From Candidatus Omnitrophota bacterium (GTDB lineage: Bacteria > Omnitrophota > Gorgyraeia > Gygaellales > Profunditerraquicolaceae), in NCBI GenBank assembly GCA_016208765.1, contig JACQXK010000038.1, positions 14,955-78,954 on the forward strand: a DNA stretch of 64,000 nt, written 5' to 3'. The notes beneath the pieces are model-generated. The model ran no database searches. It worked only from the letters and a program-made list of their open reading frames with translations, and was not told the origin of the DNA. How positions within the stretch are numbered: position 1 is the first letter of the stretch; the number at the start of each line of letters is the position of its first letter. This document shows, in pieces, positions 26,770 to 63,200 of the stretch. The position numbers and the translations under genes were made by a program.

Positions 26770-26885
26770 GCGCCTCCCCTTACCCCAAATTTCTTTAATC
26801 ATCGCGTTTATCTTCGCGCTCGTCATAATTTAATTAAAGAGAATTAAAATCTGTTTGTGAAACTGTTTAATAAGCAATTAAATAA

Positions 26886-27070
26886 AAAACCGGATTGTCA
26901 AAACCTTGTCTCGGTTCGGCAACCCGGCCATCCTTTGATAATACTCAATTTATCTTTTAGGACCCGTGGCTTTGCGCCCCCCGATTACTCGTCCCGTTCA
27001 ATAATCTTTCTAACGGGATCCCGCTTTTTTTGCGGGAGGGTTTGCCCTTCTCGTTCCAACCTCTAATTGC
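26886..27070 (-). promoter_or_regulatory. Conserved 5' leader L1 of giant gene A (structured RNA candidate ending in hairpin + U-tract)
   Basis: Homologous to 35088-35296 and partly to 45303-45489. Shared blocks: GCGGGAGGGTTT, CCCGTGGCTTTG(C/T)GCCCC, CGG(C/T)AACCCGGC, a hairpin, then AAAAATAAAA(A)CCG (U-tract on the sense strand). Confidence 0.5.
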
Positions 27071-27212: not shown

Positions 27213-27279
27213 TGTCATTCCCGCGGACACGGGCATCCAGGCATTTAAACGGTTGGATTCCCGCTTTCGCGGGAATGAC
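27213..27279. repeat. Palindromic intergenic repeat, GTCATTCCCGCG...CGCGGGAATGAC family, copy A
   Basis: gtcattcccgcggacacgggcatccaggcatttaaacggttggattcccgctttcgcgggaatgac. The outer 12-nt arms are inverted repeats, and the inner gggcatccagg/ctggattccc arms are also inverted. ORF-track ORFs here (WIPAFAGMT / VIPAKAGIQ) are translation artefacts of the repeat. Confidence 0.85.
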
Positions 27280-27327
27280 AAACCTCCCCTACGATTTTCG
27301 TAGAGAGGTGTCCAATACTTCTCTATT

Positions 27328-27417
27328 GTCATGCCCGCGGACTCCAGCGGCCTTGCCGCTAGGCAGGCGGGCATCCAGGCGTTCCAATAGCTGGATTCCC
27401 GCTTTCGCGGGAATGAC
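27328..27417. repeat. Palindromic intergenic repeat copy B (with extra inner hairpin insertion)
   Basis: gtcatgcccgcggactccagcggccttgccgctaggcaggcgggcatccaggcgttccaatagctggattcccgctttcgcgggaatgac. Confidence 0.85.
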
Positions 27418-27460: not shown

Positions 27461-27469
27461 AATAAGCTC

Positions 27470-27536
27470 AGATTGGACAATTATATTGGACTTTATTTCA
27501 CTTTGGACATTTTACAGGCATTTAATAATGTCCAAA
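27470..27536. promoter_or_regulatory. Cluster of TTGGACA(T) motif sites just downstream of the gene B stop, including the inverted pair TTTGGACAT(17 nt)ATGTCCAAA
   Basis: cagattggacaa (27470-27480), attggac (27485-27491), tttggacattt (27503-27513), aatgtccaaa (27527-27536). Confidence 0.6.
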
Positions 27537-27545
27537 CTGAAACCT

Positions 27546-30500
27546 TTAAAATTCTTCACGGGTTTCTCCTGAAGTTGAGAAAGTAACAGACTTATTTGTT
27601 TCAGTTGAGCTGCTTAAATCAGGATCATTGGATGGCTTTGCTTTAATATAATCCCACCTATAACCAACAGTGTCATCTCCCATTAAAGGCTTAACAAAAG
27701 CCTGCGGCATACCGTTAGCATTCCATGCCGGAGGCAGCATAATTGAAGCACGGCCTTCATAGGCAGCTCCAAGAGTAAGATCCTCAGGATTATCCTGCAC
27801 CAAAGTAATACCATTGCCCATATCCACCAGTTGGATCTTAAGTAATCCATCTCGTGCCTCTTCCAAGCTGATAATAGATTGTGCGGGATCCTGCCAGCGG
27901 CCCAATTCTTCACTAAGTTTCTTTATTTCTTCCTGCACTTCCTTTAATTTCTTTTCAGCTTCTTTTTTCTGCTGGCTATCATCACTCATCGCTTCCAAAC
28001 CTTTATTAATATTTTCTTCTTGTAGAACTAACTCTTCAACACTGCTTTTCTTATCCCTCAGATAATTTATGTCTTGAGTATAAATATTATATGCTGTGCG
28101 AATATTTGCCTCAATAGAATCTCTATTGTACGCTCCGTTACGGGGCAGGGTAAATGCCGGCGCCAACTGCAGATTATTTTCTGCCCGATAACCGGAAGTA
28201 ACGCCCCATTGCAATAACGGCGCATTTTCTTCGGTATTAAAACGGGTATACTTATAAACACCCGACTGCCAAACCACATTTGCCGGAGCGCTAAGCTGCC
28301 CTATCTGTTTCACATATTCAGTCCTCTCAAATAATTCTCCCGAGGTATGCTTATCTGCCTTGGCTCTTTCAGCATTGAACCTGTCAAACACAACGCGCTT
28401 TGTAAGCGGCAGATCTTTCTGCTCTTGGGCATCATCACCTTGGATAGCCTCAAACTGTTTAAAGTCAAATACAACACTCTGCGCAATTTGCCATATCTGG
28501 TCGGTTAAGCTGCTTGGAATTGCTGAATCAAATTGAGGTTTATTGCCACCGGCGTAAGCCGCATTCAATGCCTCTTCAAACATACGCTTCCCCTTGTCTC
28601 TTAAAAATGCTGCTTCTCTGCCTGTGTTTAAATACATATAAGGCTGCAGTGCCGGGCCTGAGCGGGTTTCAGAAAGGCGCCATGAGTAAGACGGATTTCC
28701 ATAAGGGCTGTGCCCTTGGCCGATAGAATAGAAGTTATAATTGTAGTCTGTATTTGCCCCGACGGAAACTGGAGCGTAGCCAGATGGCTGTATTTCAACT
28801 GTAGGAACAACTTCCGGCTTCTTAGGCTCCGGATCCCTCATCATTACCTCAAGGCTGCGCGGCAACCATATCACGCTGGCAGCAAGCATGTTAGCAACAT
28901 GGTGGCGAGGAGCTTTGTCTGGATCATAATCCTGGATAACCGCAGTTGTTGCAGCATCTCTTTTCATATTATTGCTCGGATAATCTGAATTGGATTGCAT
29001 ATTCCAATCTTCTAAGACAGTTGCCCAGCCAACAAATTTAACGGTAAATCTTTCTTTGTCTTTAGCAGACATTTCATTCCAAGCATCATGATTATTGGCA
29101 ATATACCACAAAAGCATTGTATTATGCGAAGTTGGCTTGTCGCTCTTAAACCCGCGTCCAACCCTTCCTTGTTTTTTATACCAACGCCTCACAATGCCAT
29201 CAAGTTCTTTCACCAAATCCGGATTATCAGCAAACAATTTCTCTGCATCCCGGTAAGAAACTTTCACCACTTCCACATCTTTGTTTTCAACTGCAGCTAT
29301 AAGCCTTTTTGTGGCCACAGCTTTAGCGGCCCTTTGCACCGGATCATCCCTGCTAAACAGCTGTTCCGTCGCTGTAGGCAGTTTTGGAAAACGAATAACT
29401 ACCCGAGCCTCAACAGGAACAGGGCTCTGCCCTTGAGGAGCAGCTGCTTGATCTTGCTTGCCAACTACGCTTTGCTCTTGCACATACTCCGGAGGAGTAA
29501 TCGCGGTGTAATCCGTTGTCCTGGTCAATGCAGAACCAAACGGGCCGTAATAATATTCGGTTGTCTTGGGCAATTGCACCAAATTCCAATTACCATTGGC
29601 AAAATCCTGGCCATCCTCACTAACAAAATCCTGCCCGAAATATTCTGTGCTTCTTGCCCTGCCCCATAAATCAACTCTGGTGCGCGATAAAAGGCTGGTA
29701 ACCGGCGAGAAAAATACCGGCCGCGCAGAAGAAAATTTGCGGATAATTTCTTTTTTATCTTCAAGTGACAAAGCCAATAATTTTTCTTTTTCGGCATTAA
29801 ATTCCTGCACTGCTTTTTCATCCTGAGCATCAGGCAATTGCATACGTTTTACAAATTTATCAAACTGCTCTTGCATAAACTGATCCTGAGTAACAAGGTC
29901 ACTCTTTTGAGCCTTAAGCATATCTTGTGTCAACGCCTGCATTACCGGCTGGGCGATAACAGAACGCCCATAGGTCAACTGATCCAGAGGCAATCCGCCG
30001 GCAACTGACAAAGAATAAGTGCTGTTTACTACTCCGTCGCCAATATTAGGTAAAGATAAATATTTACCCAAAATACCTCTTTCCTGCGGCTTAAGCATTG
30101 TTGAACTGCTGGCGCTAAAATGCCGCATAAATAATGCTTCATTAGTATTTAGGGATGCGTCCATACCTGCGGCCTCATCTCTGCGCTGGTAATGATAAAT
30201 ACCGCCGATTTGCCCATGGCCAAGGCTTGAATCATACACGGAATATTCCATTTGCCTTGCCTCTGCCATCTGCCTTGCCACAGGCAGAGCTTGCTGCATC
30301 CAATTATCTTCACCTTCTCCGCCTTTCTTGCTAAAGAAATAAACCGACTTATCTCTAAGCGCCCAACCTTGAGTAATTTCTGCAGTAGTAACAGGAGCAG
30401 AATCAGGTAACTTAGCGCTATACACAGGTGTTAACCCTTGTGCCGCAACCACCCACTGGAATATTTCCTGGCGCGGAATTGATAAATCTTGAAGTTGTCT

Positions 30501-33500
30501 ATTTATTTCTGGTAAAGGCGCTTTTATTGCATCCATTTCATCTCTCAATCCATTAATGCGTGTCTCCTGGATACTAACAAAATCCTTAACCTTACCTTCA
30601 AAAACACTGATTTCTTCTGCACCAAGCGCATCACGATTCATAGATTGTCCAGCAAGCTTATTAATATTTTCTACTTGCTCTTCTTCCCCAGCAAAAACAC
30701 CAAACTGAGCATTTGTGGCAACCACAAGCGAAATTGTATTAACATCCGGATTTAAACCTTGCTCTTTTGCCTTCTGCAAATCTTGATATGCTGCGTAAAT
30801 CGGATCTGCTTCCAGCTCTTTTTTCTTTTTCTCTTTTTTATTCACTTGCTCTGCAATTTCAGTTTTCTTTACTTCTAAGCCAACTATTTGCTCAGCTGTA
30901 TCAGGCTTATATCTCTTCGCAGTATCAATAAATCTTTCTGCCTGCTCTCTTAAGGCCTTTCTTCTTTGCGTTTCCTCTTTTACTAACTCGCTTGTAGGCT
31001 TAAAACTTGCGTAGGTGCGGGAAGAGCGAGGCAATATTGGATTTGTAAAAACAGCAGAAACAGATGAAGCCAGCCTTGAATTTGCCTGCTGGCTCAATGA
31101 TTCAAGCATTAATGCCCTATTAGCTTGTAACGGGCTGTAACCCTTTGCCCGCATTTTCATATATTCAATAAAACGATCCTGCTCATTAAATCTTGCCTGC
31201 AAACCATTCATTCCGTTAATCGGCGTCCTTAAATTAACCGGGAACAATGTGGCATTAACCGTTGACAGGAATAAATTATCCCCTATATTTTCCAAGGTAG
31301 CAGGAATAAACCTGCCCAACACATCACGCATGCTGAAATTAATTCTTCCTTTGCTGATTGGATCCTCGCCCAGAGAAGGCATTCTCCTGGTTTCTCCGGA
31401 GTAATCAAACCCAGCTATATTTAATCCATAAACAGTCCTGGTAATTTCGCGTGTGCGCACGCGGAAATCCTCCGGAGCAAGCTCTACTTCTTTTCTTTCT
31501 TTGGAAGATAAAACAATTATACCGGTTTCTTTCTTACCAACAACAACACCTTTCTCATTTACTACATCCATTATCTTACGGGTATCTTGTGCTACCGAAT
31601 ACACCGTAGTAGTATCTGCATCCAATTCAAATTCTCCGGTGGATTCACTTCTTGCTGTCCCGCCTTGCGCTCTTATCTGGCTGACTGAAGCATAATGCAC
31701 ATCGCCAGTGGCAGACTTTAAAGAAATAAGCGGATCAGCGGTATTTTCTGTCCAAAATTTAGTCCCGTTAATCTCATATCCGGGGAGAGTAATCATTTTT
31801 AATGGAGAACGCTGAGACGGGCCGGCAAAAATAAATTCACCTTCTCCTAAAATATTATACACATCAACTATCTCAGTTTTCTGAACCGATTTGTTAAATT
31901 CTTCTCCGCTCATCTCTAAAATATTGCCATCGGTAGAGATAAAAGTGTGTTCCGGAGAAGCATTGCCTTCTTGGTCAGTAGCTCTAATATAAGTCCGTCC
32001 ATCTCCGGCAAACCGATAGTATTCTACGCTCCGTCTTGGACCCGACTGGGCAATCGCAGCCCACTGCTCTGAAGAAACTTCTTTATTTTGTCCATCACCT
32101 AATGAATGCAAAATAACACCAGCTGGCTTAGCCTGCTGGCTAAATTTCTCCGGCGTCATAAAAGTCCTCTGGCCACCTGGAGTTGATGCTCCCAAAAGCA
32201 CTCCAGTAACTGTACTCACGCCCTTTAATGCCTGTCCACTGCCATATTGGACAACATTTGCGGATAAATCTTCCAACGACACTGAGATCTTCTTTTTAGT
32301 CGTTCCTTCGCTTTCCAATTCAACACTATTGCTATCCTGGCTATAGCCAACAATATGATAATATTGTATCTCACCTGAACCAGAACTAAGGCCTACTCGC
32401 ATAGGAGCATTATTTGATGCTGAAGTTTCTGATGATTTCTGCTGCAAACTTACCGCCAACTCTCTGCCGAAGTCATTTTGAAATTCATCCATTGTCTTAA
32501 GTTTTTCACTGCCGGCAACTATGATCGGCTGTTGATCACTTTTTTTCTCGTCTTTGTTTTCTTCCGGTTTATTCGCCACAAAATCAACAACCATTATATT
32601 TCCAGTAGCTATTACTTGGCTGATATTACCATCTCTGACATAAACCTGAATATCTGTTTTCTTTGCTCCTTGCTTTTCTTTTACCTCATCCAATGTTTCA
32701 GAAGAAAAATCTATATACTGGCCATCGGGGGCATGAGCCCTTGTTATATCTTTTGCCGGTGCGCGCAAGACCAAAGCATCAACCACTGAACCAGCCACTA
32801 CACCACTGGCAAGATGTAATAATTCCTGCAATGCCTGCGGTTGGCGAATTTCATTCACCCGGCAATACTGCCCCCAGGCAATTTGCAAGCCGGCATCCAC
32901 AGCATTATCAATTAGCGACTTTGCTATATATTTAGAAAGAGATAAACTTCCTCTTGTTCGCCAATAATTATCCTGGACTTTATTACCTGTTTTATCATCT
33001 GTCCAAGTCGTTCCGGAATACCATGTGTTTAAAACATCTATATTAGAAAACACACCGCTAGAAAAACCGGCAATTGCTCCAGCACCTACGCGCTTAACCA
33101 AATTATCAAAAATCTTATCATCATCGTCGCCGTAATGAGTCTTATACCCCATTGCTGATAAGACTGCAAGCTTAACCCCCAAATTAACAAAGGGTGCCAG
33201 CCCCATATTCTGCACCGCCTTAAAAGACTGATTCAATATGCCAAAATCACTCATTGTGTTTCCTTGCACATCAGTCATCAATCCACCGGTTGCATTTAAC
33301 AAAGCAGCTGTGTTAACATGCGCTTGTGTTAATAAATTCAACGTACTCAGTTGTGCCTGAGCAAGCTCTCTTCCTGAAACCTGGAGCAAAACATTTTCCT
33401 TTTCACCTGTTGGAATAATAAGAATTACTTTTTCGGCAGATTGTAAAATACCAGCGAGCGCTTTATTTTGCGCAACATCAGAAAGGGCGATACTCCCAGC

Positions 33501-35045
33501 ATTATCTATGGACGCTGTTGCCCCATTTAACTGCGCAGCTGTAAAAGAATATTCTTTACCGCTAATATCTCTGATAGACACCGCAGCCTGCTGCGCCTGA
33601 TTAACCGCATTTAACATAATAGCATCTGCCTGATCCAACGCTCCACCTACTGCACTTAAGCTATACCCTCCCACATACTGCATTAACGACCTATAAACAG
33701 AACCCTTGTTCATATCAATATCAAGCGTATATGTGTCTTCACCAATTTTTAAAACTAGCGCCTTCTGCAACTCTCCAATTTCTCCCGTATTAATTCCTTC
33801 CTGCAATGATGTACCTTTAGTAGTTTTGCCTTGAGATAATTCCTGGATACTAATTTCTACAGTTTCAACCTTACCGTCTTTTGTTTGCCGCGTAACTTTA
33901 ACTTTGTCATTTGACGTAGCCTGATCAGAAACTGCATCTAATGCAGAAAATGCCAAGTTTGAAACAAATTGGTTTACAAAAATCCCGGAAACGCTGGCTC
34001 CAAACTGCGACACTAAATCAGCCAGCAACTCATCCCACCCGGCTTCTTCAAGCTTATCCTTTATTCCCTGCTGTGTCCAAAGCTTAAATGTGCCGACAAT
34101 CATATCGCTTGCCAAATGCACCAATGGCTTCTTTACAGATAATTCAATCCCATATTGAAAATAAGGGCTGCGCATACCGTAGCTTGGTGAGAACTTTTGC
34201 AGCAAAGCTTCAATCTTACCCATAACAACATCAAAGGTAGATAAATTACCTAACACACCCTTAATAATATTTTCTTTAATGAGCGCTAAACTTTCTTCAG
34301 TAACCTGCGCTGTTATCTCTTTTGGAAGAATTTTTACTGCCTCACTTGCTGCCTTTTCCAATGCCTCTGCTGTAGGCTTTCCGCCTGCCTTGGCTACACT
34401 GGCTACTGCCGTTACCACAGCATTTTTTATTGCAGCCTCACAAACAGAGCTTATTACTTCCTCAACTATCTGATCCACGCCTTCTTTGCCAAGCGTTTTC
34501 AATACTTCTTGAGGCAACTGTTCAATTGCTTCCCTTGCAGCGCTCTCCATCATTGCCAGCGAGGCTCCTTTTGGCAATTCTTCTATTGCCTTTTTAGCAG
34601 CGCTTTTAGCTGTTTCCTTTGCCATTTCTTTTGCTGACTGCGCCACGCCGGCACCATAAGCCACGCCTACAGAAACTACCATACCGGCAACCATAGAATA
34701 AAACTGCCCCTTAGTAACCGTAACCCCAGCCACCTCAAACATCGGCTTTGCATACTGATTATAATTGTAATAGTAAAGCGCGTAACCAGTTACATCAGAA
34801 GCAGCAGAGCCCGCCGCTGCTGCAGCAGCTCCCCATGGGCCCAGAGCGTAAGCTCCCAAAAGTATTCCCGCATCAGTTACTGCACCTGCCAAAGCGCCTC
34901 CGGCAAAAGACTCCAGAGAAGTAGTGTTGCCATAATTGCCTTCTCTTGCCCAAGCCGGAGAAAGGCTGCTAAATAGAAAAACACCCGCCAGAATTAAGTA
35001 TGGGATTTTAAATCTTTTTAGGTTAGAGAAAAAGTTACTTTTCAT
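27546..35045 (-). CDS. Giant secreted protein B (about 2,499 aa), function unknown
   Basis: ORF track 27546..35060. I prefer the ATG at 35045 (MKSNFFSNLKRFKIPYLILAGVFLFSSLSPAWA, signal peptide with AWA cleavage site). The N-terminus has Gly/Ala-rich hydrophobic stretches. Long coiled-coil and charged segments; contains LASSVSAV and SPVTS-like motifs. Confidence 0.85.
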   Translation of the reverse strand: MKSNFFSNLKRFKIPYLILAGVFLFSSLSPAWAREGNYGNTTSLESFAGGALAGAVTDAGILLGAYALGPWGAAAAAAGSAASDVTGYALYYYNYNQYAKPMFEVAGVTVTKGQFYSMVAGMVVSVGVAYGAGVAQSAKEMAKETAKSAAKKAIEELPKGASLAMMESAAREAIEQLPQEVLKTLGKEGVDQIVEEVISSVCEAAIKNAVVTAVASVAKAGGKPTAEALEKAASEAVKILPKEITAQVTEESLALIKENIIKGVLGNLSTFDVVMGKIEALLQKFSPSYGMRSPYFQYGIELSVKKPLVHLASDMIVGTFKLWTQQGIKDKLEEAGWDELLADLVSQFGASVSGIFVNQFVSNLAFSALDAVSDQATSNDKVKVTRQTKDGKVETVEISIQELSQGKTTKGTSLQEGINTGEIGELQKALVLKIGEDTYTLDIDMNKGSVYRSLMQYVGGYSLSAVGGALDQADAIMLNAVNQAQQAAVSIRDISGKEYSFTAAQLNGATASIDNAGSIALSDVAQNKALAGILQSAEKVILIIPTGEKENVLLQVSGRELAQAQLSTLNLLTQAHVNTAALLNATGGLMTDVQGNTMSDFGILNQSFKAVQNMGLAPFVNLGVKLAVLSAMGYKTHYGDDDDKIFDNLVKRVGAGAIAGFSSGVFSNIDVLNTWYSGTTWTDDKTGNKVQDNYWRTRGSLSLSKYIAKSLIDNAVDAGLQIAWGQYCRVNEIRQPQALQELLHLASGVVAGSVVDALVLRAPAKDITRAHAPDGQYIDFSSETLDEVKEKQGAKKTDIQVYVRDGNISQVIATGNIMVVDFVANKPEENKDEKKSDQQPIIVAGSEKLKTMDEFQNDFGRELAVSLQQKSSETSASNNAPMRVGLSSGSGEIQYYHIVGYSQDSNSVELESEGTTKKKISVSLEDLSANVVQYGSGQALKGVSTVTGVLLGASTPGGQRTFMTPEKFSQQAKPAGVILHSLGDGQNKEVSSEQWAAIAQSGPRRSVEYYRFAGDGRTYIRATDQEGNASPEHTFISTDGNILEMSGEEFNKSVQKTEIVDVYNILGEGEFIFAGPSQRSPLKMITLPGYEINGTKFWTENTADPLISLKSATGDVHYASVSQIRAQGGTARSESTGEFELDADTTTVYSVAQDTRKIMDVVNEKGVVVGKKETGIIVLSSKERKEVELAPEDFRVRTREITRTVYGLNIAGFDYSGETRRMPSLGEDPISKGRINFSMRDVLGRFIPATLENIGDNLFLSTVNATLFPVNLRTPINGMNGLQARFNEQDRFIEYMKMRAKGYSPLQANRALMLESLSQQANSRLASSVSAVFTNPILPRSSRTYASFKPTSELVKEETQRRKALREQAERFIDTAKRYKPDTAEQIVGLEVKKTEIAEQVNKKEKKKKELEADPIYAAYQDLQKAKEQGLNPDVNTISLVVATNAQFGVFAGEEEQVENINKLAGQSMNRDALGAEEISVFEGKVKDFVSIQETRINGLRDEMDAIKAPLPEINRQLQDLSIPRQEIFQWVVAAQGLTPVYSAKLPDSAPVTTAEITQGWALRDKSVYFFSKKGGEGEDNWMQQALPVARQMAEARQMEYSVYDSSLGHGQIGGIYHYQRRDEAAGMDASLNTNEALFMRHFSASSSTMLKPQERGILGKYLSLPNIGDGVVNSTYSLSVAGGLPLDQLTYGRSVIAQPVMQALTQDMLKAQKSDLVTQDQFMQEQFDKFVKRMQLPDAQDEKAVQEFNAEKEKLLALSLEDKKEIIRKFSSARPVFFSPVTSLLSRTRVDLWGRARSTEYFGQDFVSEDGQDFANGNWNLVQLPKTTEYYYGPFGSALTRTTDYTAITPPEYVQEQSVVGKQDQAAAPQGQSPVPVEARVVIRFPKLPTATEQLFSRDDPVQRAAKAVATKRLIAAVENKDVEVVKVSYRDAEKLFADNPDLVKELDGIVRRWYKKQGRVGRGFKSDKPTSHNTMLLWYIANNHDAWNEMSAKDKERFTVKFVGWATVLEDWNMQSNSDYPSNNMKRDAATTAVIQDYDPDKAPRHHVANMLAASVIWLPRSLEVMMRDPEPKKPEVVPTVEIQPSGYAPVSVGANTDYNYNFYSIGQGHSPYGNPSYSWRLSETRSGPALQPYMYLNTGREAAFLRDKGKRMFEEALNAAYAGGNKPQFDSAIPSSLTDQIWQIAQSVVFDFKQFEAIQGDDAQEQKDLPLTKRVVFDRFNAERAKADKHTSGELFERTEYVKQIGQLSAPANVVWQSGVYKYTRFNTEENAPLLQWGVTSGYRAENNLQLAPAFTLPRNGAYNRDSIEANIRTAYNIYTQDINYLRDKKSSVEELVLQEENINKGLEAMSDDSQQKKEAEKKLKEVQEEIKKLSEELGRWQDPAQSIISLEEARDGLLKIQLVDMGNGITLVQDNPEDLTLGAAYEGRASIMLPPAWNANGMPQAFVKPLMGDDTVGYRWDYIKAKPSNDPDLSSSTETNKSVTFSTSGETREEF

Positions 35046-35087
35046 ATTTTTAAGTGGCAAATACTTTTTGAAACTGTTTAGGATTTA

Positions 35088-35296
35088 AGCAAAAATAAAA
35101 CCGAGCTGCCTTTATTCAAACTCGGCAACCCGGCTACCCAAAAAATGATTCCAAATAAACTCGGTAAACTACATTTCTCCGAGGGGCCCGTGGCTTTGTG
35201 CCCCCTGATTACTCATCCCGCTCAATAATCTTTTTAACGGGATCCCGCTTTGCGGGAGGGTTTACTCTTATCGAACTGACCTTTATTATTTACTAC
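35088..35296 (-). promoter_or_regulatory. Conserved 5' leader L2 of giant gene B (paralog of L1) ending in hairpin CCGAG...CTCGG + UUUUAUUUUU, 45 nt before the ATG
   Basis: About 85-90% identical to L1 over the core cccgtggctttgtgccccctgattactcatcccgctcaataatctttttaacgggatcccgctttgcgggagggttt. Confidence 0.5.
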
Positions 35297-35302
35297 AATG
35301 CA

Positions 35303-35332
35303 AGTATAGCATTCATATATATATATTTCAAG
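35303..35332 (-). promoter_or_regulatory. Sigma70-like promoter of giant gene B (TTGAAA, 17 nt spacer, TATACT)
   Basis: Sense strand reads TTGAAAtatatatatatgaatgcTATACT. Confidence 0.5.
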
Positions 35333-35419
35333 GGTGTTTTTAACTCTTTTTGAAAACGCTTTCTTATGCATTAAGATTCTTCAGCCCCTTCGCGGTGAGG
35401 CATTCAACACTTTTCTATT

Positions 35420-35509
35420 GTCATGCCCGCGGACGCCAGCGACCTTGCCGCTAGGCAGACGGGCATCCAGGCGTTCCAACGGCTGGATTCCCGCTTTCGC
35501 GGGAATGAC
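35420..35509. repeat. Palindromic intergenic repeat copy C
   Basis: gtcatgcccgcggacgccagcgaccttgccgctaggcagacgggcatccaggcgttccaacggctggattcccgctttcgcgggaatgac. Nearly identical to copy B. Confidence 0.85.
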
Positions 35510-35567: not shown

Positions 35568-35586
35568 TGAAGGATCTAAGATACCC

Positions 35587-35622
35587 AGATTGGACATTAT
35601 CACAGCTATTAATGTCCAATCT
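35587..35622. promoter_or_regulatory. Near-perfect palindrome AGATTGGACATTA(9 nt)TAATGTCCAATCT, 6 nt after the lipoprotein gene stop; operator-like and/or terminator hairpin
   Basis: 13/14-bp arms. There is no U-tract afterwards on the sense strand. Confidence 0.55.
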
Positions 35623-35628
35623 GACAGA

Positions 35629-42084: not shown

Positions 42085-42110
42085 GAAAACATTATGAACA
42101 TGAAGTTGTT

Positions 42111-42176
42111 GTCATGCCCGCGGACGCGGGCATCCAGACGTTCCAATGGCTGGATTCCCGCATTCGCGGGAATGAC
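42111..42176. repeat. Palindromic intergenic repeat copy D (between the tadE-like gene and the Cys-rich pseudopilin gene)
   Basis: gtcatgcccgcggacgcgggcatccagacgttccaatggctggattcccgcattcgcgggaatgac. Confidence 0.85.
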
Positions 42177-45119: not shown

Positions 45120-45291
45120 CTTGCACCCCCATAAATGCTGCTATGGTCTGAAAATGATTCTCAAACACATTATTCTTTGTTTTTAGAAGAAAATCAGTGC
45201 TTACTAAGGCAATCACAGCTACTGCTGCCAAAAGCAGATATTCTACGAAAGATTGTCCAATCTGGTTTCTTAAAGACTTTTTAAATTTCAT
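45112..45291 (-). CDS. flp: Flp-family pilin (flp1, about 59 aa), first gene of the pilin array, under promoter/leader L3
   Basis: ATG at 45291 preceded by AAGGAG. MKFKKSLRNQIGQSFVEYLLLAAVAVIALV. The track ORF 45112..45444 reads through the leader. Confidence 0.75.
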   Translation of the reverse strand: MKFKKSLRNQIGQSFVEYLLLAAVAVIALVSTDFLLKTKNNVFENHFQTIAAFMGVQVD

Positions 45292-45302
45292 TAGTATCTC
45301 CT

Positions 45303-45489
45303 TAAATAAAAAACCGACGTCTCTTTTACTTTCAAAGAAACCTCGGCTTTCGGTAACCCGGCTAATGCTCTCGCTCTTGACCTTAAAGCTTAAAGCAATG
45401 AAGACAAATCTTGCGAGCGTCATCCCGTGGCTTTGCGCATCCACCCCTCCAAGAGTGGAATTGCCTTTTCGTTGCCGCCCTTCAACTAC
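45303..45489 (-). promoter_or_regulatory. Leader L3 upstream of the flp array, sharing the 3' half of the L1/L2 leader
   Basis: Sense strand: ...GCGCAAAGCCACGGG...GCCGGGTTACCGAAAGCCGAGG...GACGTCGGTTTTTTATTTAAGGAGatactaATG. aaataaaaaaccg matches L1 exactly over 13 nt. Confidence 0.45.
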
Positions 45490-47370: not shown

Positions 47371-47379
47371 GCTCTCTCC

Positions 47380-47450
47380 AGATTGGACATTTCCTCTACA
47401 ATATTACCATTTTTATGCGGCGTGTCAAGCTCTTTATAGATTGGACATTT
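47380..47450 (-). promoter_or_regulatory. Promoter of the HTH-protein gene (TTGACA, 16 nt spacer, TAATAT) flanked by two direct AGATTGGACATTT sites
   Basis: Sites at 47380-47392 and 47438-47450. -35 at 47423-47428, -10 at 47401-47406. Confidence 0.5.
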
Positions 47451-54215: not shown

Positions 54216-57200
54216 TTATTTAGATACAAAGTTTATACCGGCTAAACTTGATTGAAATTCTTCTCCTGTTTTTTCCGACTCAAGCGCAACTAAAAATTGT
54301 TTTAAACCGGTGTCTGTCGCGCAACATTCTTCTTCCTGCTTTCTTAATATATCTGCCATCAGGCTGATTACTTTATCTATTTCCTGATCAAAATTATTTA
54401 CAGCGCAACAATTAGATAAATACTCTTTAATTCTTTGCGCTGAAGGAGTAATTCCTCCATTGAACATCCTCTCAATTGCTTGCCATTCTTTGGCTAAAGA
54501 GCCATCCGTAGAGTAGAGGAGGTTTAAACCTCCTCTACTAACTGGTGACTGGTGACTGGTGACTGGTGACAGCATCCCCGGCTGTGTCACAATCGGCAAA
54601 ACGCGCATATCAATACCACCTTTTTTGTCCGCTGATGATGAAACAGGATACTCAGTATTAACCATCGCAATATTTTCAGCTTCCTTCTTTTTTCTAGCGT
54701 CAACTAAACTAACTACCTTAGGCGGACTTTGTAATGTCAAATTAACACCTAATATCTTTGCTGATTTTTCCCTGATAAGATTAATCTCATCTGTAATAAG
54801 CCCATAATCGGATTGAGAAATAATCTCTTCACCTCTAACCTCTTTTGCATATTTTGATATTATCGTAATAAAACGGTTTACTGCATTCCAAGCATCTTCA
54901 TTGCTTCCGGAAATATTAATCTCGTAGCGCGGTTGTCCAAAAATCTCGTTAAGCTCATCACGAAGCTCTTTAACATTATCCGAACTCAAAGTCGTGTTCT
55001 GCAATATATAATCCCCCAGATGCATTCTTAAAAGCAACAGCAAATCTTTTACCTGTTTTTTATCTACGTTCAATCTGACATCTTCTTGTCCCGCGCTTAA
55101 CGAATAATCCCGGTTTATATTTATCACAGGAGGATATTTTTCCACCGCCGAGGAGGCTGTCGCACCGGCTCCCGCATTAACGTTATCTCTTTCGGTTTTT
55201 ATATTACCTCTCGTGGCATTGAGAATCTGTGATAACAATAATACTGCAGAAGTATCCGCTGCCTGCTGATTATATTTATTCTTAAAACCTATATATGTAT
55301 TAAACGCTCTTGCACCAGCTGCCGCAGGGTCAGCCATGAGTTTCTTAAAATTTTGAAGACTAAATTTCAAAGCTCCTTTTCTTCTGGAAATAAAATCCTT
55401 AGCCGATAAATTAAACAACCAATCCCCAGGAAAATATAAAATTGGTTTTACAAGGCCTGCCGGCTCAAATATATTTCTATCTTCACCGACAATACACAAA
55501 TCTGCGATTGCAAACATTTTTAACAATTCTCCTGTTGTATAGAGAATCAAAACATCCTTTTCCGACATGTCTACAAACTTTTCCGTAGTTGTTCCCCGGA
55601 TTTCAACGATTTTGCTTGCGACCGTTTCAGGTAAACCACCGGGCCATTTTTCTCTTGGCGCAAAAATTAATAGCGGCCTATCCTGACGGGGTAGATTACC
55701 ATATAATTCATCAAATGCCTTAGCCACAGCATTTGCTTCGTGATAATAAGGAGAGCCCACAACAATAATTTTTCTCTTACCGACATTTAATTCTTTTTTT
55801 ATCCGGGCTGCTTCCTCAGAAGCCACAAATTCCTGCATACTGTGTTTAAAAGGAAAGTAGGGCAATGAAACAGAGGCGCCCACCTCTTTATCAACTCCGC
55901 GATGATCATGAAATTCTATCCAGATATACCTCCCATCATCCTGAACCTTGTTGGGCGCAACGAGCTTTTCTGCACGATAACCTGGAAATTCTTTTTCTAC
56001 AACTTCTTTTTCTTGGATATCCCCAAGAAAACTAAATTCGGCTGTGCCGCTATCCAAACCTAATGCTTCAATAAAACCTCTGGCGGCACGAAGCGAAGCA
56101 AACTCATAGGCGACAAACTTAATTTTTTTTCCGCTTAATTTTAAAGCATTTTTAAAAATACGGCCGATTGCGATGATTTGATCGCGGCCGACAGCCTCAT
56201 CTGGCCTGCCCAATTTATCAACTAACTTATTAAATAAAATTAACGCGAGATTCTCAAGTTCTGCCTGAGCATTTTCTTTGCCTATTCTTTCAGCGCCAAA
56301 AAAGACATTGCTGATTCGTAACAAATTTGCTTTGGTTTGCACAGAATTACCGACAACAACTATTTCATCTTTTAAGACAGGAAAGGCAGTCTCAAATAAA
56401 TCCACTGCGTTTTCTTTCGCCAATACACCGGCTTCTACAAGGGTCTCAAAATACCTATCAAAAAACTCCATCCCAAACTCTTTAACAAAAACCTGTAGGC
56501 TATCAATAAACAAGTTATTAGATTCTCTGCCGCTAGCCATAAGCAGAGAAACAAGGCCATTGCCAATTCTTTGCAGATTCTTGGTAGTTTTTTCTGCATC
56601 ATCTTTTACGACAATTAACTCTTTAAATATTACCAAACCCAACTCACACAGAACCCATGCTTCCTCGCCTGAAGATTTAAAAAGCTCAACAAGAACATTC
56701 CAATTTGTTTCCATAAAATGCTCTCCGTATGCTTTATAGAAAACTGGCAGGCTATTTGCAAATAAGAGAATGGCGTTTTCTCCGGAGCTCTGGGCAATCT
56801 CTACCAAGCTATCCCAATGTTTAGTGACAAAGGCCATGCCGACTTCTTTTGTTAACCTGGGTAAAGCAATACGGAATAGAGGGCTTGCTATTTTTTTATT
56901 AGCCCCACAGAACTCAACCAGTCTTTCAGAAATTCCTGTCAAAGAAAGAATTTGCTGAGTCTCTTCAGGAAGGTCATTAAATGAAATTTTTGTAAAAGTA
57001 AAGATTTCTTTATTATAATCTTCCCTGATTGAGCCTCCCACCGCCGATGAGGAAACGTTGGATAACTTAGGCTTAAATGCGATCGCCGCAGGAGAATTGT
57101 CTTTTTCATTTTCAAAAATAATTCTCTCAACTTCTTTCTTTCTATTTTTATAAATGTCAGCTATCAGTTCATCAACATAGGGAACCCTTTTTTCAATCCT

Positions 57201-60200
57201 CGCGCCAATATCGGGAAGCATAAAATCCACAAATAATATATAGCCGTTATCACCCAAAATTTCTTGCGCTTGGGCAATGTATTGCCATACATTCCAATTT
57301 TCATTCCCTATGCCAAGATTAACAGGAGCATATAAATTCATAAATTGCCACATGTTATAAAACACTACCACTACAGGGCCTTTTTGCAGTCCGAATCTTT
57401 CTTTTAAACTATCCTGAAAGTCATCTTCAAAAAAATCTTTTTTGAATATTTCACAGCCTTCTACAGCAGGAAGCGATGCGTTAGCGTCCACATTAATTAC
57501 CCGCCAACCTTTCGTAATAAGCGGGTTCCGGCCACTTCCAATATTTAAAATCACGCTACCCTTAGGAATCTTTAATTTCTCAAGAAATATTTCCAGGTTT
57601 TTTGAAGCCGCTTCCCTGTAATGGCCATTTAAATCATTGAGATGGGGCATTAGAGATACGCGTACGCACGAAGACACATCCTCCACCGCAGAGGAAGCGA
57701 CAGTATCTATATCCTTAGGAGCGAGCGAAGAATCAAGAGGCAGCTCAATAATCTTAGGCTCAACAGAAAGAACTTGGTTATTCAAAATATTAATCATTCT
57801 CCGGCATTCTTTTGTAAGAGCACCCTGAGCGTCATAATATGGCCTCAAACAATAAAGCTCGTCTCCTTTTTGCGAAATCGCTACCTGCCCACCAAGAGGT
57901 TCAAGATAATTTACCAGGGTATCTTCCTTATCTCTAAACCAAGCGGCAAATTCTCTTATTAACAAGTCTTCATTACCCGTATCATAATAAAGACTGAAAA
58001 ATGTTTTAATAAATTCTCTATTGGCTTCTGAAAGACTTAACCATAATTTTTTTAATTCAAGGCGGTAATCAGGATTAATAAAGTATTCCGCGTGATTTAA
58101 TTCATGTTCAACTGTAGCTTTTCCTGCGCCTTGATAGTAAGTTACAATAGCTATGTCAGGAGCGCCAATATATGTATGGCCTGTTCTCACAAGCAACCCC
58201 AGCTTTATTAATTCTTCTTTCATTCTTTCCTCTATGACGTTTAAAGACATGCCCTGTTGCGCTGCCAATGTAAAGAAATTTGCCATATCCTCCAACTTGA
58301 AATCATGGCCCAATGCTCCTTCACACCCAGTTTCTGCCAACTCTTGGTCAAGCCGGCTATCCGAAAGCAAGCCATTTTTCTGTTCTACAAAAAAACTAAG
58401 CCGGTCAAAGGCTAATCCTTGAAACGTAGACTTGTTAAATACGAAAAAGAATACCGGCTTAGAACCATACTTTAATAATCTGTAAAACTCACTTTCCCGC
58501 AGGTTAACATTCAAAATATCCTCTGCTTGCATAAAACTGGATAATACTTCAGAGGCCTGAAGAGGATATCCAGACAAAGATGTTTTTAACTCTTCCAATC
58601 TCCCCTCTTTAAAATACCTGTACCGGAAAGCTGGATCATATTTCAAACTCCTTGCCATCATGTCTCTGTAATAAATACTAGATTCCATGTTTTCTTTTAT
58701 AATTAATCTAAATTCTTTTGAATCAAGAAAATGTTTCAAAATATCTGCTACGGGTTTTACACTACCGTCTCCCTGTAGGATAGCCGGTGCAATAACGAGC
58801 ATTGCCCATAAAAGAATTCTTTTAATAACCCTATTAAAATTAATCATCTTATGATTTCCTGAAAGAATATTGGTTATTGTTGCCGATTCTGTTCCTTCCG
58901 CTACTGAAGAGTTAGCAGATTGCTTAATCGCCGAGGAGGCGACAGTGCTTTTGGCATGAGGCGTAAGCGAAGAATCAAGAGGCAGCTCAATAATTCTTTC
59001 TTCAACAGCAGGCGGGTTAACTTGCGGGCCTGGAAAAACACTTTCTTCCTCTTGCGGTTTTTTTGTTCCGCTAATCATGCCTTCAACGACATTCACCGAA
59101 ATTTTCTTTTCTTTGCCTTTGCCGTCGCCAAGAGTAGCCACCACTAAAACAATCGTATTCCCTTGGTGGATGAGAACAGTATTAGAGCAAGTTACATCTT
59201 TAAAATCATCCTCGGCAATGCCTAAACGCCTGCAGACCTCTTCTTTGCTCTTGATTAAAATATCTAAAGCATCAACTACGGCTTTTTGGGAAACTATATC
59301 CAAATTGCTATTATTCGTGCTCTTGAGCAATTCTAAACTTAGATTATGCGCCTGATATTCCACCTCAAGACGCGGTTTGCTATCAGGGCTTCCTGAATAG
59401 ATAACCATATAGGCAATATGCTGAGCCAGGGCCATAGCTCTTTCTTTCCTTCCCCCTTGCAGCCGGCTGAACCATTCCCACCCAACCACTATAATTGTAG
59501 TAAAAGAAGTTTTGCCGGAATTATACGTAGTTTTCGTCTGAAGAAAAGCCGTGCCATCCCCCATGCCTATTCCTTTCATAAAAAGAACCTGAAAATGATT
59601 ATTTTCATTTCTTAAAAAAGGTTCTTCCGGTAACTTATCCGCCAAATATTTGATGCTTTCCTCAACTAGCCCTGCGTGCTCATTAGATATTCTTATGGAT
59701 TGTTGCAGCCGTTCTTTTGTAACTCTGCCCGGGGCATACCTTTGCACAAAACCTAACAGCCTGTCTGAATAAACAATATCCTCTTGCTCATTGTTGTCAA
59801 AATCTTGCTGGCCTACCACTTCTCCCACTGTCTTTTTTATGCCCTCCAATGCCGTTGCGTTCATAGGCATAATGCCCAAGGCTGCTACAAAAGCAACCAA
59901 AGAAAGCAAGCCCGTCGCTGCTAACTTTTTCTTCACCGCCGAGGAGGCGAAGGATCCAGAGTAAGTAGCCCGATAGGCTTTTTCAAAAGAGCGCAATGCA
60001 ATATCAGAATACTTACCGAGAGACCTATACAGCTCAAAATACTCAGTCTCAATATTATCCTCTGAGACTTCGTTCAAGCTGTATACATTATTAAGATCAA
60101 CTCTCAACACTTCAGAGACCTTGTCATTTTCAACCCTGACAACAAATTGGCCAAGATGGGTATCCCCGGCGATTATTTCTTGATTATGAAGCGTGGCTAA

Positions 60201-63200
60201 AGTTATACCCAAAAACGCTCCCATCTCGCGCAGGAGATTCTCGCTATGCTGATGAACGGATATAAATTCTTTTACGTTTGGCCCGACCCAGTCAGAAACA
60301 AAAATAATCTTGCTTGATTGTGTCATCACTTCAAAAAACTGCTCTTTGTTTAATCCTAATTCACCTGCTACAGCATTATATTCATCCTCAGTACGCATCT
60401 CTACTAATTGCAACATATTTTCTTGTTGGGCGTTGCGTAAAATAGATAGCGTTTCAGAAGGCAAAAGTTGCTCATTCTTTTCTGAGAATGTAATTTTCTT
60501 CTGGGCTATCGTTGCTTCAACATCTAATCTTATCATCGGCAGGTAAACACGCAAAACCCGCGGCACAACCCTTTTACCTCCCGGAGTCCGTATTTGCAAA
60601 CTTAAACAATAGTTCTTAATACTTCTTGGATCAGGCGTTATGCCTCGCACATGCGCCTGTTTGTTATCCACAACCGCCTTAAAACCACTTTCTAATAACA
60701 ACGAATCAACTACTCTGCCTTTTGTTTCATTCACCGCCGAAGAAGCAAAATTTCTTTCACCTATAATTATCTTATCTCCCGGCCGTATATCGGGTATTTT
60801 TGAAAAAAGATTGAATCTGCCCTCGTCATTAACAACGGCATTTAATGCTCTTATTTTACCCGTACTTATTCTATACCTACGCCCAATCCCCCAAAGAGTG
60901 TCTCCTTTTCTCACCACGTGCCGAATCTCGAGAGGCAATCTCAGTTGCTGGCCTGCTTTAATTCTATGCATGCTGCGTAAACGGTTAATCCGGGCTAACT
61001 GCCCTGCAAGTTTTGCATTGCCATAATATTTAATTGCGATATGTCCCAAAGTATCGCGCGGCTTAACATCAATATATACATCTCCACGCTGCGGAGGTGG
61101 CTGAGCAAACTCTGGCGGCGGAATTTCAATGAACTTTTTAATCTCCATATCTAACAATCCCGGGAACCCGGCTGTGATAATTCCGAAAATTAAACCGGCT
61201 GCGATAATTCTAAAAATAGAGACAAGCCCTGATGTTTTTTCTTTATTCAAATGCTTTATCAAATTTATTCTTGGCGTTAAAAATAATTGGCTTGTAGGAA
61301 CCCTGTTATAATTAATAGGTTGAATATTATCTGATTCATCAAATTCAGGTACATTAAATTCAGGCCCATCATTATACGGCCCAGTAATTTCCTGATCCGT
61401 GATAGCTTCCACTGGCTGAGGCATCTTTGCATTGTAATAACCTAATTTTTGTAAAACTTTTTCTAAATCCCTGCGAACCGCCTCAGGTTTGCGGGTAACC
61501 CCCGATTCCCTATTTTCTAATGCTAATGCGCGCAATACTGCGTTAATTGTTTGTTGGTCTCTAAACAGCACCGGCAAGGTTAATTCCCTAAAAGCAGCAG
61601 AACGCACAGAATAGTCCTTATCTCTAATTAAGATTTCAACTAAAATTGGAGTTGAAAAACGATAATCAATCTTAGTAATTATTTTAATTATATCCTTTCG
61701 GACAGGAGATTTCTGGTCTTTTAGTCTATCGCGAAGCAGCTCTAAAGCAGGGTTACCTATGCGAATTAAAACATTTCCTATATTTTCATACCCAGAATCC
61801 CTATTCTCTAAAGCTGAAATAAGCTCAGGCACAGCAGCCTCTCCAATGCTGACCAAAATTTCAGCTGCGTCTTCCTTAATCGGACTGGACACTCCTTTTA
61901 GTAACGCGTCAATCAACGGCTTAACCGCCGGCTTACCAAAATTGGTTAAATCTTTGACAATAACTGTTCTTTCCTGAAAACCAAGTTTTTGGTTTAATCT
62001 GTCAATAAGCAACGAAATTACATAATCAACCCCGCCGTACTTAATTAAACCTTCAAGCGCGGCTTGGTGAACTCCCGGGTCATCATCTCTTAATAAGTTA
62101 AGTAAAATTAACACCGCAGGCTGAGGTACAATGTTTTTTAAAATATTATTACCGGCAAAAAATCCGTTCTTTTCTGAATATTCACGGACAGACCTGTCCC
62201 GCATAGCATTTTCTCTCAATGCCTGGCGCAAACCTTTGATTGAATATGGAGAACGCACCCAGCCAATCTGAACTGCTGCCCGGGCGACCTCCTCCCGGAC
62301 ACTCTTGTTTTCATCCCCGCTTAAATCAATTAAAACAGGAAATGCGGCAGGGTCTTTCATTTGAGCTAATGTTTGGACAACCTTTACGCGAATATCGGGA
62401 TTGGGATCATCGGCTAATCTCAGCAATGAATGTACTGCAATCCTGATTATTCCATCACGAAGAGGGGGGTCAGCCAGTTGAAGCAAAATATTCGTTATTG
62501 CTGAATAAACAGTTAAGCCGTGGTCAGGAAAATATTCTTCTGGAAACATTCTTTCTAAATCACGCAGTATCGTCAACAGATAATCTGTATTATTTCTTCC
62601 TCGCACAATTAATTCAATACGCGCAGACTCACGAGGAAGCAAACCTGCATATAAATCTTTAAGCAAAGGCCCGATGCTTGGATCGTCCGTTGCTGATAAT
62701 ATTGGAGAAGAGGAATTTACATAATTTCCAACCGCCGAGGAGGCGCTGGTACCTTTGACAGGTGCAATCGCGGAGCTTGCATTTTGTTTAGTTAGGGACG
62801 GTTCTGAAACATGCTTAAAAGTATCCCCCAGCGATGGCGCGGCTGCCGAAGAAGCACTATTTCTTCCCGCAAAAATAATTCCGCTATGTGCTTCAGCCTC
62901 TTTTGAACCTTCTCCATAGGCCTTAATAAACTCGTCCATCTCAGCAATGACTTCGTTTTCTAACGGAACCCCCTGAGAAAATAACCTTGCTTTAATTTTC
63001 TCTTTCTCTTGATAGGCTAAATTAAAATCAAAATGCGATAGTGCATCTGCAAAACTATCTATCAACGAAAGGTATTCTTTTCTTGAAGACGCCGCGTCAA
63101 AACTCCTTAACAAGAGAATCAGTTCATTAAAAATGTGCTCTCTAATCCTCTCCTTTTTAACAAATAATTCCACATAACCCTTGTCTTTTTCCTCCAGGCA

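Follow-up and report, generated by a model that had tools for sequence, protein, structure and literature searches.

In Clostridioides difficile, a c-di-GMP-II riboswitch lies upstream of pilA1 and acts as an ON switch for pilus genes. The Vc2 RNA of Vibrio cholerae belongs to the c-di-GMP-I class (also called GEMM-I; Rfam family RF01051), in which an aptamer for cyclic diguanosine monophosphate (c-di-GMP) is built around a three-helix junction. A variant of this fold, GEMM-Ib (for example, Gs1761 of Geobacter), has A at the equivalent of Vc2 G20 and retains C92; the Geobacter RNAs are reportedly terminator-based ON switches upstream of genes with extracellular functions, as Nelson et al. and Kellenberger et al. 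are said to have described in 2015. The element considered here, L2, is an RNA leader encoded on the minus strand of a 64-kb stretch of one contig (hereafter the window, whose positions serve as coordinates throughout) from a Candidatus Omnitrophica metagenome-assembled genome (MAG). The Omnitrophota are uncultured, ultra-small bacteria, putatively predatory nanobacteria, in which giant genes lie beside a Tad-like secretion/pilus system. L2 precedes gene B, a 7.5-kb gene situated between a Tad/Flp pilus operon and a giant open reading frame (ORF) of at least 8,942 amino acids (aa), and its sequence argues that it is probably a transcription-terminating cyclic-dinucleotide ON riboswitch of the c-di-GMP-I (GEMM-I) fold.

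From its upstream end to gene B, the unit consists of the following features (lengths in nucleotides, nt):

35352-35364, minus strand: near-palindrome AGAAAGCGTTTTC, a putative transcription-factor site
35303-35331, minus strand: sigma-70-type promoter (TTGAAA at 35331-35326, 17 nt, TATACT at 35308-35303, with an extended -10 TG)
35121-35276, minus strand: aptamer of the c-di-GMP-I (GEMM-I) class (RF01051, 35.6 bits; no pair flagged as non-standard)
35203-35260, minus strand: enlarged P2 with a four-way junction (50-nt insertion; stem CCCU/AGGG plus three hairpins)
35139-35184, minus strand: P3-tip insertion of ~45 nt (hairpin CUCGG...CCGAG and a U-rich tail; scored by Rfam as an insertion)
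35091-35135, minus strand: intrinsic terminator (5' arm AGCCGGGUUGCC at 35135-35124, 3' arm GGCAGCUCGGUU at 35110-35099, 13-nt loop)
35064-35080, minus strand: post-terminator box TAAACAGTTTCAAAAAG (17 nt; consensus TAA[GA]nAGTTT[TC]AnAAAG)
27546-35045, minus strand: gene B, the putatively regulated gene (2,499 aa; signal-peptide-like N-terminus; no Shine-Dalgarno (SD) sequence)

An earlier note on this DNA had quoted a sense-strand sequence, which matches the minus strand exactly (35700 to 34950, reverse complement). It had placed a terminator-like hairpin between the promoter and the reading frame, with the U-tract only 45 nt before the gene B start codon, and both points hold: the promoter lies at 35331-35303, the hairpin at 35135-35099 and the ATG at 35045-35043. 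The U-tract ends at 35091, leaving a spacer of 45 nt, or of 43 nt if counted after the 'GC' that follows the U-tract. The proposal that transcription of a 7.5-kb gene must pass a conditional termination point is likewise supported, the hairpin being the expression platform of a riboswitch aptamer (RF01051) with which it shares nucleotides. Some details had to be revised. An ortholog of the leader (L002) is unable to form the stem implied by that account, GCCGAG/CUCGG, which is also not the stem of minimum free energy. The terminated leader RNA, put at ~250 nt, would instead be about 200-205 nt long.

The terminator consists of a 12-base-pair stem followed by the U-tract UUUUAUUUUU (35100-35091). 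Its folding energy is -19.8 kcal/mol, compared with -11.5 +/- 2.4 kcal/mol for shuffled sequences (z = -3.4; 0 of 200 shuffles as good), and the AGCCGGGUUGCC/GGCAGCUCGGUU stem is the minimum-free-energy fold both of the whole leader and of the 53-nt 3' segment alone. Thus, a stable, GC-rich stem that is better than chance is followed directly by a U-tract and is conserved. The 13-nt loop is longer than typical, and a loop of more than 8 nt is the sole reason why a simple scan for terminators passed the hairpin over. The 5' arm of this terminator is the 3' strand of aptamer helix P3 together with C92, the nucleotide that pairs with the ligand. Because the arm is made of aptamer sequence, the aptamer and the terminator are mutually exclusive and, since a ligand-bound aptamer would exclude the terminator, L2 is predicted to be an ON switch. 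In orthologous leaders the 5' arm is invariant, as expected for aptamer sequence, and the 3' arms differ, GGCAGCCCGG in L002 and GGCGACGCGG in L003, yet still pair with it (-22.7 and -18.0 kcal/mol, respectively).

In the proposed mechanism, RNA polymerase would start at the sigma-70-type promoter, with a predicted transcription start near 35296-35299, and would transcribe the aptamer (35276-35121) first. Binding of a cyclic dinucleotide at the three-helix junction (A20, A47, C92; Vc2 numbering) would keep P1 and P3 closed. With these helices closed, AGCCGGGUUGCC would be unable to pair with GGCAGCUCGGUU, no terminator would form, and polymerase would read through into gene B. Without ligand, the terminator stem and U-tract would release a leader RNA of ~200 nt. 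The promoter matches 10 of the 12 consensus positions and is the top promoter-like site in a 3-kb scan; both of its hexamers are invariant in L002 and L003. A Bacteroidetes-type promoter with SD-less biology was considered and ruled out, the organism belonging to the Omnitrophota and the promoter being sigma-70-like.

The aptamer was assigned by its match to RF01051 at 35121-35276 (35.6 bits against a gathering cutoff of 35; E = 0.0028 over the whole window). P1 is formed by UUCG (35275-35272) and CGAG (35124-35121). Position 20 is an A (35266), which is unpaired and lies directly 5' of the G21-C46 pair (35265/35198). The next pair is U22-A45 (35264/35199), a compensatory replacement of the consensus C22-G45 in the Rfam alignment. 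Among the GEMM-I ligand contacts G20, A47 and C92, the latter two are kept (35197 and 35125, respectively) and G20 is not, its replacement by A being the substitution known from GEMM-Ib. The aptamer core is the same in L002, L003 and L122. The score of L2 is brought down to the cutoff by an enlarged P2, an enlarged P3 and the A at position 20. Like Vc2, L2 has the three-helix junction, junction nucleotides A18, G21-C46, A47-A49 and C92, a GNRA tetraloop on the P2 side, an association with pili and large surface proteins, and a score at or above the Rfam cutoff. Unlike Vc2, it has A20, two extra hairpins that make P2 a four-way junction, a 45-nt insertion in P3, no recognisable 11-nt tetraloop receptor, and a host in the phylum Omnitrophota. 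With Geobacter GEMM-Ib it shares the GEMM-I fold, the A at the Vc2 G20 equivalent and the retained C92; it differs in phylum and in its P2 and P3 elaborations, which are absent from the Geobacter RNAs. Other family assignments were rejected. The c-di-GMP-I-GGC family (RF03167), which belongs to the same clan, gave the top raw score for L2 in a scan of the short region, 36.1 bits, far below its cutoff of 59; its defining G47 is absent, the G of the RF03167 consensus being A in L2 (CACAAAG vs GCGAAg). A match to the RybB small RNA (RF00110; 29.1 bits, cutoff 40) covers the terminator stem and U-tract only.

The enlarged P2 contains hairpins a (CCCGC-AAA-GCGGG), b (AUCCCGUU...GAGCGGGAU) and c (GA-GUAA-UC), the last of which carries the GNRA-type GUAA tetraloop (35212-35209). 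This three-hairpin layout recurs in separate minimum-free-energy folds of L2, of the neighbouring riboswitch L1, and of L002, L003, L068 and L042; L068 and L042 reach it with quite different sequences, and L123 has the same P2 insertion sequence with small changes. In an alignment of seven RNAs, 86.7% of the P2 cells pair, compared with at most 51% when the partners are slid by 1-3 columns, and 6 pairs are changed on both sides, indicating covariation across loci. Hairpins a and b of L068 and L042 were wrongly aligned by MAFFT, which makes these pair counts conservative; in the Rfam match, the 5' half of L068 is likewise misplaced. Three orthologs show hardly any change in the P3 insertion. 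Aligned from the upstream palindrome through to the ATG, the leaders L2, L002 and L003 are 92% identical, compared with 77-84% identity in their flanking coding DNA. These three leaders, and the metagenome leader L122, all retain the terminator and both insertions as well as A20 and the U-A pair.

Gene B does not stand alone in having such a leader. Three RF01051 matches at or above the gathering score are present in the window, all on the minus strand; those other than L2 are:

26915-27056, minus strand: c-di-GMP-I riboswitch L1 (RF01051, 46.6 bits; G20; four-way-junction P2)
45349-45475, minus strand: c-di-GMP-I riboswitch L3 (RF01051, 40.2 bits; G20; no GNRA loop on P2)

Each of the three lies ~30-45 nt behind a promoter of the form TTGAMA-17-TATAYT, and has a hairpin and a U-tract after it. 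The L1 terminator, in which CCGGGUUG pairs with CAAUCCGG, follows the same logic as that of L2, and in L3 the competitor of the terminator is an extended P1 instead of P3. In all three, ligand is predicted to prevent termination, making all three ON switches. L1 precedes the giant ORF, which has no SD, is open from 26826 to the window start and encodes a Peptidase_C39 domain at residues 214-300. The seeming 18-kb desert of ORFs at 9-27 kb is an artefact of an ORF list that leaves out frames running off the window; a single open frame of at least 8,943 codons occupies the region. L3 precedes the first Flp-type pilin gene (ATG at 45291; strong AAGGAG at 45303-45298) and the Tad operon, which includes TadB/C-like, TadG-like and related genes; a CpaF-like ATPase, a secretin, RcpC and a PpiC-type isomerase are encoded upstream of L3. 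Since the Tad/Flp operon, gene B and the giant ORF each have their own riboswitch of the same class, the whole locus appears to be wired to cyclic-dinucleotide signalling. In this logic, and in the position of L3 before a Flp pilin gene, the locus is a functional analogue of C. difficile pilA1; the class II aptamer there has an unrelated fold, serves type IV rather than Tad/Flp pili, and is accompanied by no giant genes.

The product of gene B, whose frame closes at 27546, is identical to NCBI HY761_06720 of a Candidatus Omnitrophica MAG. Its N-terminus, MKSNFFSNLKRFKIPYLILAGVFLFSSLSPAWA, looks like a signal peptide, so that the product is a predicted secreted protein. No recognisable domain was found, searches of Pfam, NCBIfam and PDB sequences giving nothing significant, and a search of 5.8 billion proteins yielded homologs in just two further clusters (66% and 40% identity). 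The contigs of these homologs are syntenic: a PsbP-like gene is the upstream neighbour, the order is TadB/C, PsbP-like lipoprotein, leader and gene B, and a second riboswitch and a giant gene follow. The reported Omnitrophota giant-gene neighbourhood contains a Rotamase_2 isomerase, RcpC, a secretin, an ATPase, small genes with class III signal peptides, GspF-like genes and giant genes, and the gene order of the window agrees with it (bioRxiv 10.1101/2023.11.21.568195).

What L2 would sense is bound up with position 20. In GEMM-I RNAs, one guanine of the ligand is read at its Hoogsteen edge by G20 and the other is paired with C92, with A47 intercalating; in riboswitches for cyclic GMP-AMP (cGAMP), the GEMM-Ib group, A replaces G20 (PMC6140456; PMC5888326). 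Natural A20 RNAs are either cGAMP-selective or bispecific, Cbe 1-2 being an example of the latter (PMC6140456), and the A20 riboswitches of Geobacter are reported to be cGAMP-selective (PMC6140456; PMC5888326). In Vc2, the G20A substitution shifts c-di-GMP binding from the picomolar range to ~53 nM, and does not abolish it; the values of the dissociation-constant type for this mutant are 53 nM for c-di-GMP and 120 nM for cGAMP (PMC6140456). L2 and its counterparts L002, L003 and L122 combine the GEMM-I fold, A20 and a retained C92, the sequence features of GEMM-Ib. By analogy, the L2 RNA is predicted to bind 3',3'-cGAMP, with an affinity for c-di-GMP below that of the neighbouring G20 RNAs, making c-di-GMP, 3',3'-cGAMP or both the candidate ligands.

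The distribution of A20 was surveyed with a degenerate pattern, derived from the conserved P3 strands, in species-representative genomes. At least 117 loci were found, at least 34 of them labelled Omnitrophota, and position 20 was called by a pairing rule, which left 5 of the 40 entries in the Omnitrophota set unassigned. Among the matches listed, position 20 is G in 30 of 35, A in 4 and C in 1. Three of the four A20 entries are gene-B leaders. The fourth, L061 (6281-6413, plus strand, of the Omnitrophota MAG contig JAZDFW010000012.1; RF01051, 43.5 bits), is a pilin-type riboswitch before a Flp pilin gene, and its A20, confirmed by Rfam, appears to be an independent origin within the phylum. 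The riboswitch before the next giant gene keeps G20 both in the window and in L003. The U22-A45 pair is not linked to A20, because a GU..AC pairing is common together with G20 in the Omnitrophota. In other phyla, ~13 further A20 assignments are present among the matches listed, mostly in Bacillota and Anaerolineae.

Two readings of A20 have to be weighed. In one, L2 would sense c-di-GMP only, with A20 lowering its affinity, so that gene B would be switched on at higher c-di-GMP than the pili in a hierarchy of thresholds. The presence of three riboswitches of the same class in series at one locus fits this idea, as does the Vc2 mutant, whose c-di-GMP binding is weakened rather than lost (PMC6140456). 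However, every A20 RNA described in that work also binds cGAMP (PMC6140456), and the conservation of A20 over diverged orthologs fits a change of specificity equally well; the chance of this reading is judged to fall somewhat short of even. In the other, L2 would be cGAMP-selective (GEMM-Ib-like), so that gene B would answer to 3',3'-cGAMP, and the pilus operon and giant ORF to c-di-GMP. All four gene-B leaders have A20 beside G20 in the neighbouring paralogs L1 and L3, a separate A20 arose in the pilin-type L061, and in Geobacter it is A at position 20 that defines the cGAMP riboswitches (PMC6140456; PMC5888326). Against this, in Vc2 G20A, as in some natural RNAs such as Cbe 1-2, A20 is enough for bispecific binding (PMC6140456), and A20 is no proof of a cGAMP pathway because it also occurs in those ~13 matches from other phyla; cGAMP selectivity is put forward tentatively and is rather unlikely. 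As a rough division, c-di-GMP as the only ligand receives a large minority share, cGAMP selectivity a smaller one, and bispecific binding or some other ligand the remainder. No GGDEF or CD-NTase domain was found in the 19 window ORFs scanned against Pfam, which represent only 64 kb of the genome.

Two further conserved sequences flank the unit. A near-palindrome, AGAAAGCG[CT]TTTC, lies just upstream of all three riboswitch promoters (35364-35352, 27138-27126 and 45557-45545), about 20-30 nt from the -35 hexamer in each case; the window matches with 0-1 mismatch include these three sites. Most riboswitch loci of the Omnitrophota have a GAAA[GA]CG[CT]T-like core ~20-30 nt before the -35 hexamer. 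At L2 the palindrome is centred ~62 nt upstream of the predicted transcription start, where activator sites typically lie, and we infer a shared transcription-factor site. On the other side of the terminator, TAAACAGTTTCAAAAAG is the sole exact match to the box consensus pattern in the window. At a threshold of at least 12 of 15 positions, the box is present in 25 of 43 Omnitrophota-type leaders compared with 53 of 5,112 background windows (~50-fold enrichment). Another window copy lies at 26853-26869 (minus strand), and others are found in L118, L092, L059 and L123; in pilin-type leaders (L3 and L074), the box overlaps the ATG and first prepilin codons (TA ATG AAA TTT AAA AAG). In 22 of 31 cases, 18-21 nt separate the first U of the U-tract from the start of the box; the distance from box to ATG varies from 2 to 193 nt. 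Because the distance to the terminator is fixed and that to the start codon is variable, the box is tied to the terminator, not to initiation of gene B. The box matches no known family, and the idea that it is a second copy of the upstream site was ruled out, that site being a distinct GAAAGCGCTTTC-type palindrome.

These sequences belong with several points that weigh against the riboswitch reading or at least against its sufficiency. Two conserved boxes flanking the unit probably show that other regulators act as well. The RF01051 score of L2 is barely at the cutoff, and the orthologs L122 and L003 (9768-9925) fall below it, with a best score of 36.4 bits on a sister model. No tetraloop receptor of the CUAAG/UAUG type (11 nt) for the GUAA loop is recognisable in P3. 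Finally, nearest-neighbour energies prefer the terminator state, at -63.2 kcal/mol compared with -46.6 kcal/mol when the aptamer is enforced (a difference of ~17 kcal/mol). Energies that favour the terminator are expected for a kinetically controlled switch, in which the bound state relies on ligand, tertiary and kinetic contributions; given this preference, we infer the ON state rather than compute it. A borderline score and a thermodynamic minimum in the terminator state would also be seen if the hairpin were a constitutive terminator or insulator, for example one that ends read-through from the Tad operon, and the aptamer-like sequence a decayed relic. Such an origin is most improbable. The leader is more conserved than the surrounding genes, its junction nucleotides are intact save position 20, its helices show compensatory changes, and a strong, conserved promoter lies directly upstream of the aptamer. 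Moreover, gene B is a conserved 7.5-kb gene, and would be silenced if the terminator 45 nt before it were constitutive.

Control might instead be mainly protein-mediated or translational, through a factor bound to the SD-less spacer or to the post-terminator box, with a minor part left to the terminator. The conserved 17-nt box in the spacer, the near-palindrome upstream of the promoter and the missing SD all speak for this. The earlier note had pointed out that no SD precedes the gene B ATG, which proves correct (the anti-SD duplex is worth -0.4 kcal/mol, vs -8 to -14 kcal/mol for the pilin genes), and had suggested that regulation may also act on translation. That suggestion found no support: there is no SD to sequester, other genes at the locus have none either, and the spacer box is tied to the terminator. 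The missing SD is not distinctive of gene B, since the giant ORF and several Tad genes also have none. In addition, the box is in register with the terminator and not with the start codon, the leader has no conserved complementarity to the start region, and a protein or translational layer could add to a riboswitch rather than replace it. Control of this kind in place of a riboswitch is thus improbable, and the riboswitch remains the preferred explanation of L2.

Beyond the window, the riboswitches of the Omnitrophota precede either Flp pilin genes (L061, L074, L085, L114 and window L3) or long ORFs, most of which run off the 8-kb loci. An N-terminal motif, ...FKSSFKTWI..., is common to the long ORFs of L012, L059, L063, L071, L089, L092, L104, L111, L118 and L123, and TATA(T)AGGTAAA stands directly before the ATG in L059, L071, L104, L118 and L123. 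From their sequences, the FKSSFKTWI ORFs belong to a single family of giant proteins under riboswitch control, and gene B is not part of it.

Other features of the window concern its giant genes and intergenic regions. Another giant ORF, with HEAT repeats and LysM domains, occupies 54216-63998 (minus strand; 3,229 aa from the first listed start). The frame is still open where the window ends, so that the true start and the leader lie beyond, and the ORF resembles the 'archaeovorin' class described for Omnitrophota. An intergenic repeat of ~100 nt is present at 35409-35509, 27317-27417, 27229-27280 and 42109-42176, in copies that are 94% identical. It is rich in hairpins (GUCAUUCCCGCGAAAGCGGGAAUCC...) and resembles a repetitive extragenic palindromic (REP) element or a miniature inverted-repeat transposable element (MITE); L002 and L003 have it near their L1-type riboswitch but not in the L2 leader region. 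The window holds 7 copies of the motif AATGTCCAATCTGG, vs 0.4 expected by chance, at positions 35585-35624, 27468-27540, 47378-47449 and 45252-45265. Inverted pairs of it come after the stop codons of the PsbP-like gene and gene B, and one copy is within the pilin coding region (QIGQS motif).

The kind of element represented by L2 is well known, and Rfam-based annotation would flag the copy in the window. Within this known kind, L2 stands out by its structural elaborations and its conserved A20. Since the orthologs score under the RF01051 gathering cutoff, this insertion-rich subtype would escape routine Rfam annotation. In the literature searched, no paper ties the giant genes or the Tad system of Omnitrophota to riboswitches or cyclic dinucleotides; Omnitrophota and riboswitches are paired only in passing, and the giant-gene preprints are silent on riboswitches and c-di-GMP.

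In the window and in at least 34 further Omnitrophota MAGs, riboswitches of the c-di-GMP-I class lie directly before pilin genes and very long ORFs. The resulting hypothesis, which can be tested in vitro, is that a cyclic dinucleotide licenses transcription of the attachment and giant-protein apparatus. The conserved A20 copy beside G20 copies provides a natural test for cGAMP riboswitches outside the Geobacter group. A more doubtful extension is that two channels operate at one locus, in which c-di-GMP, through L3 and L1, would control the Tad/Flp pili and the giant protein, 3',3'-cGAMP, through L2, would control the 2,499-aa protein, and the palindromic operator and terminator-linked box would add a protein regulator. 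If true, riboswitch-based signalling by cGAMP would, as far as is known, extend beyond the Geobacter lineage, and the giant genes of the Omnitrophota would gain a first regulatory handle.

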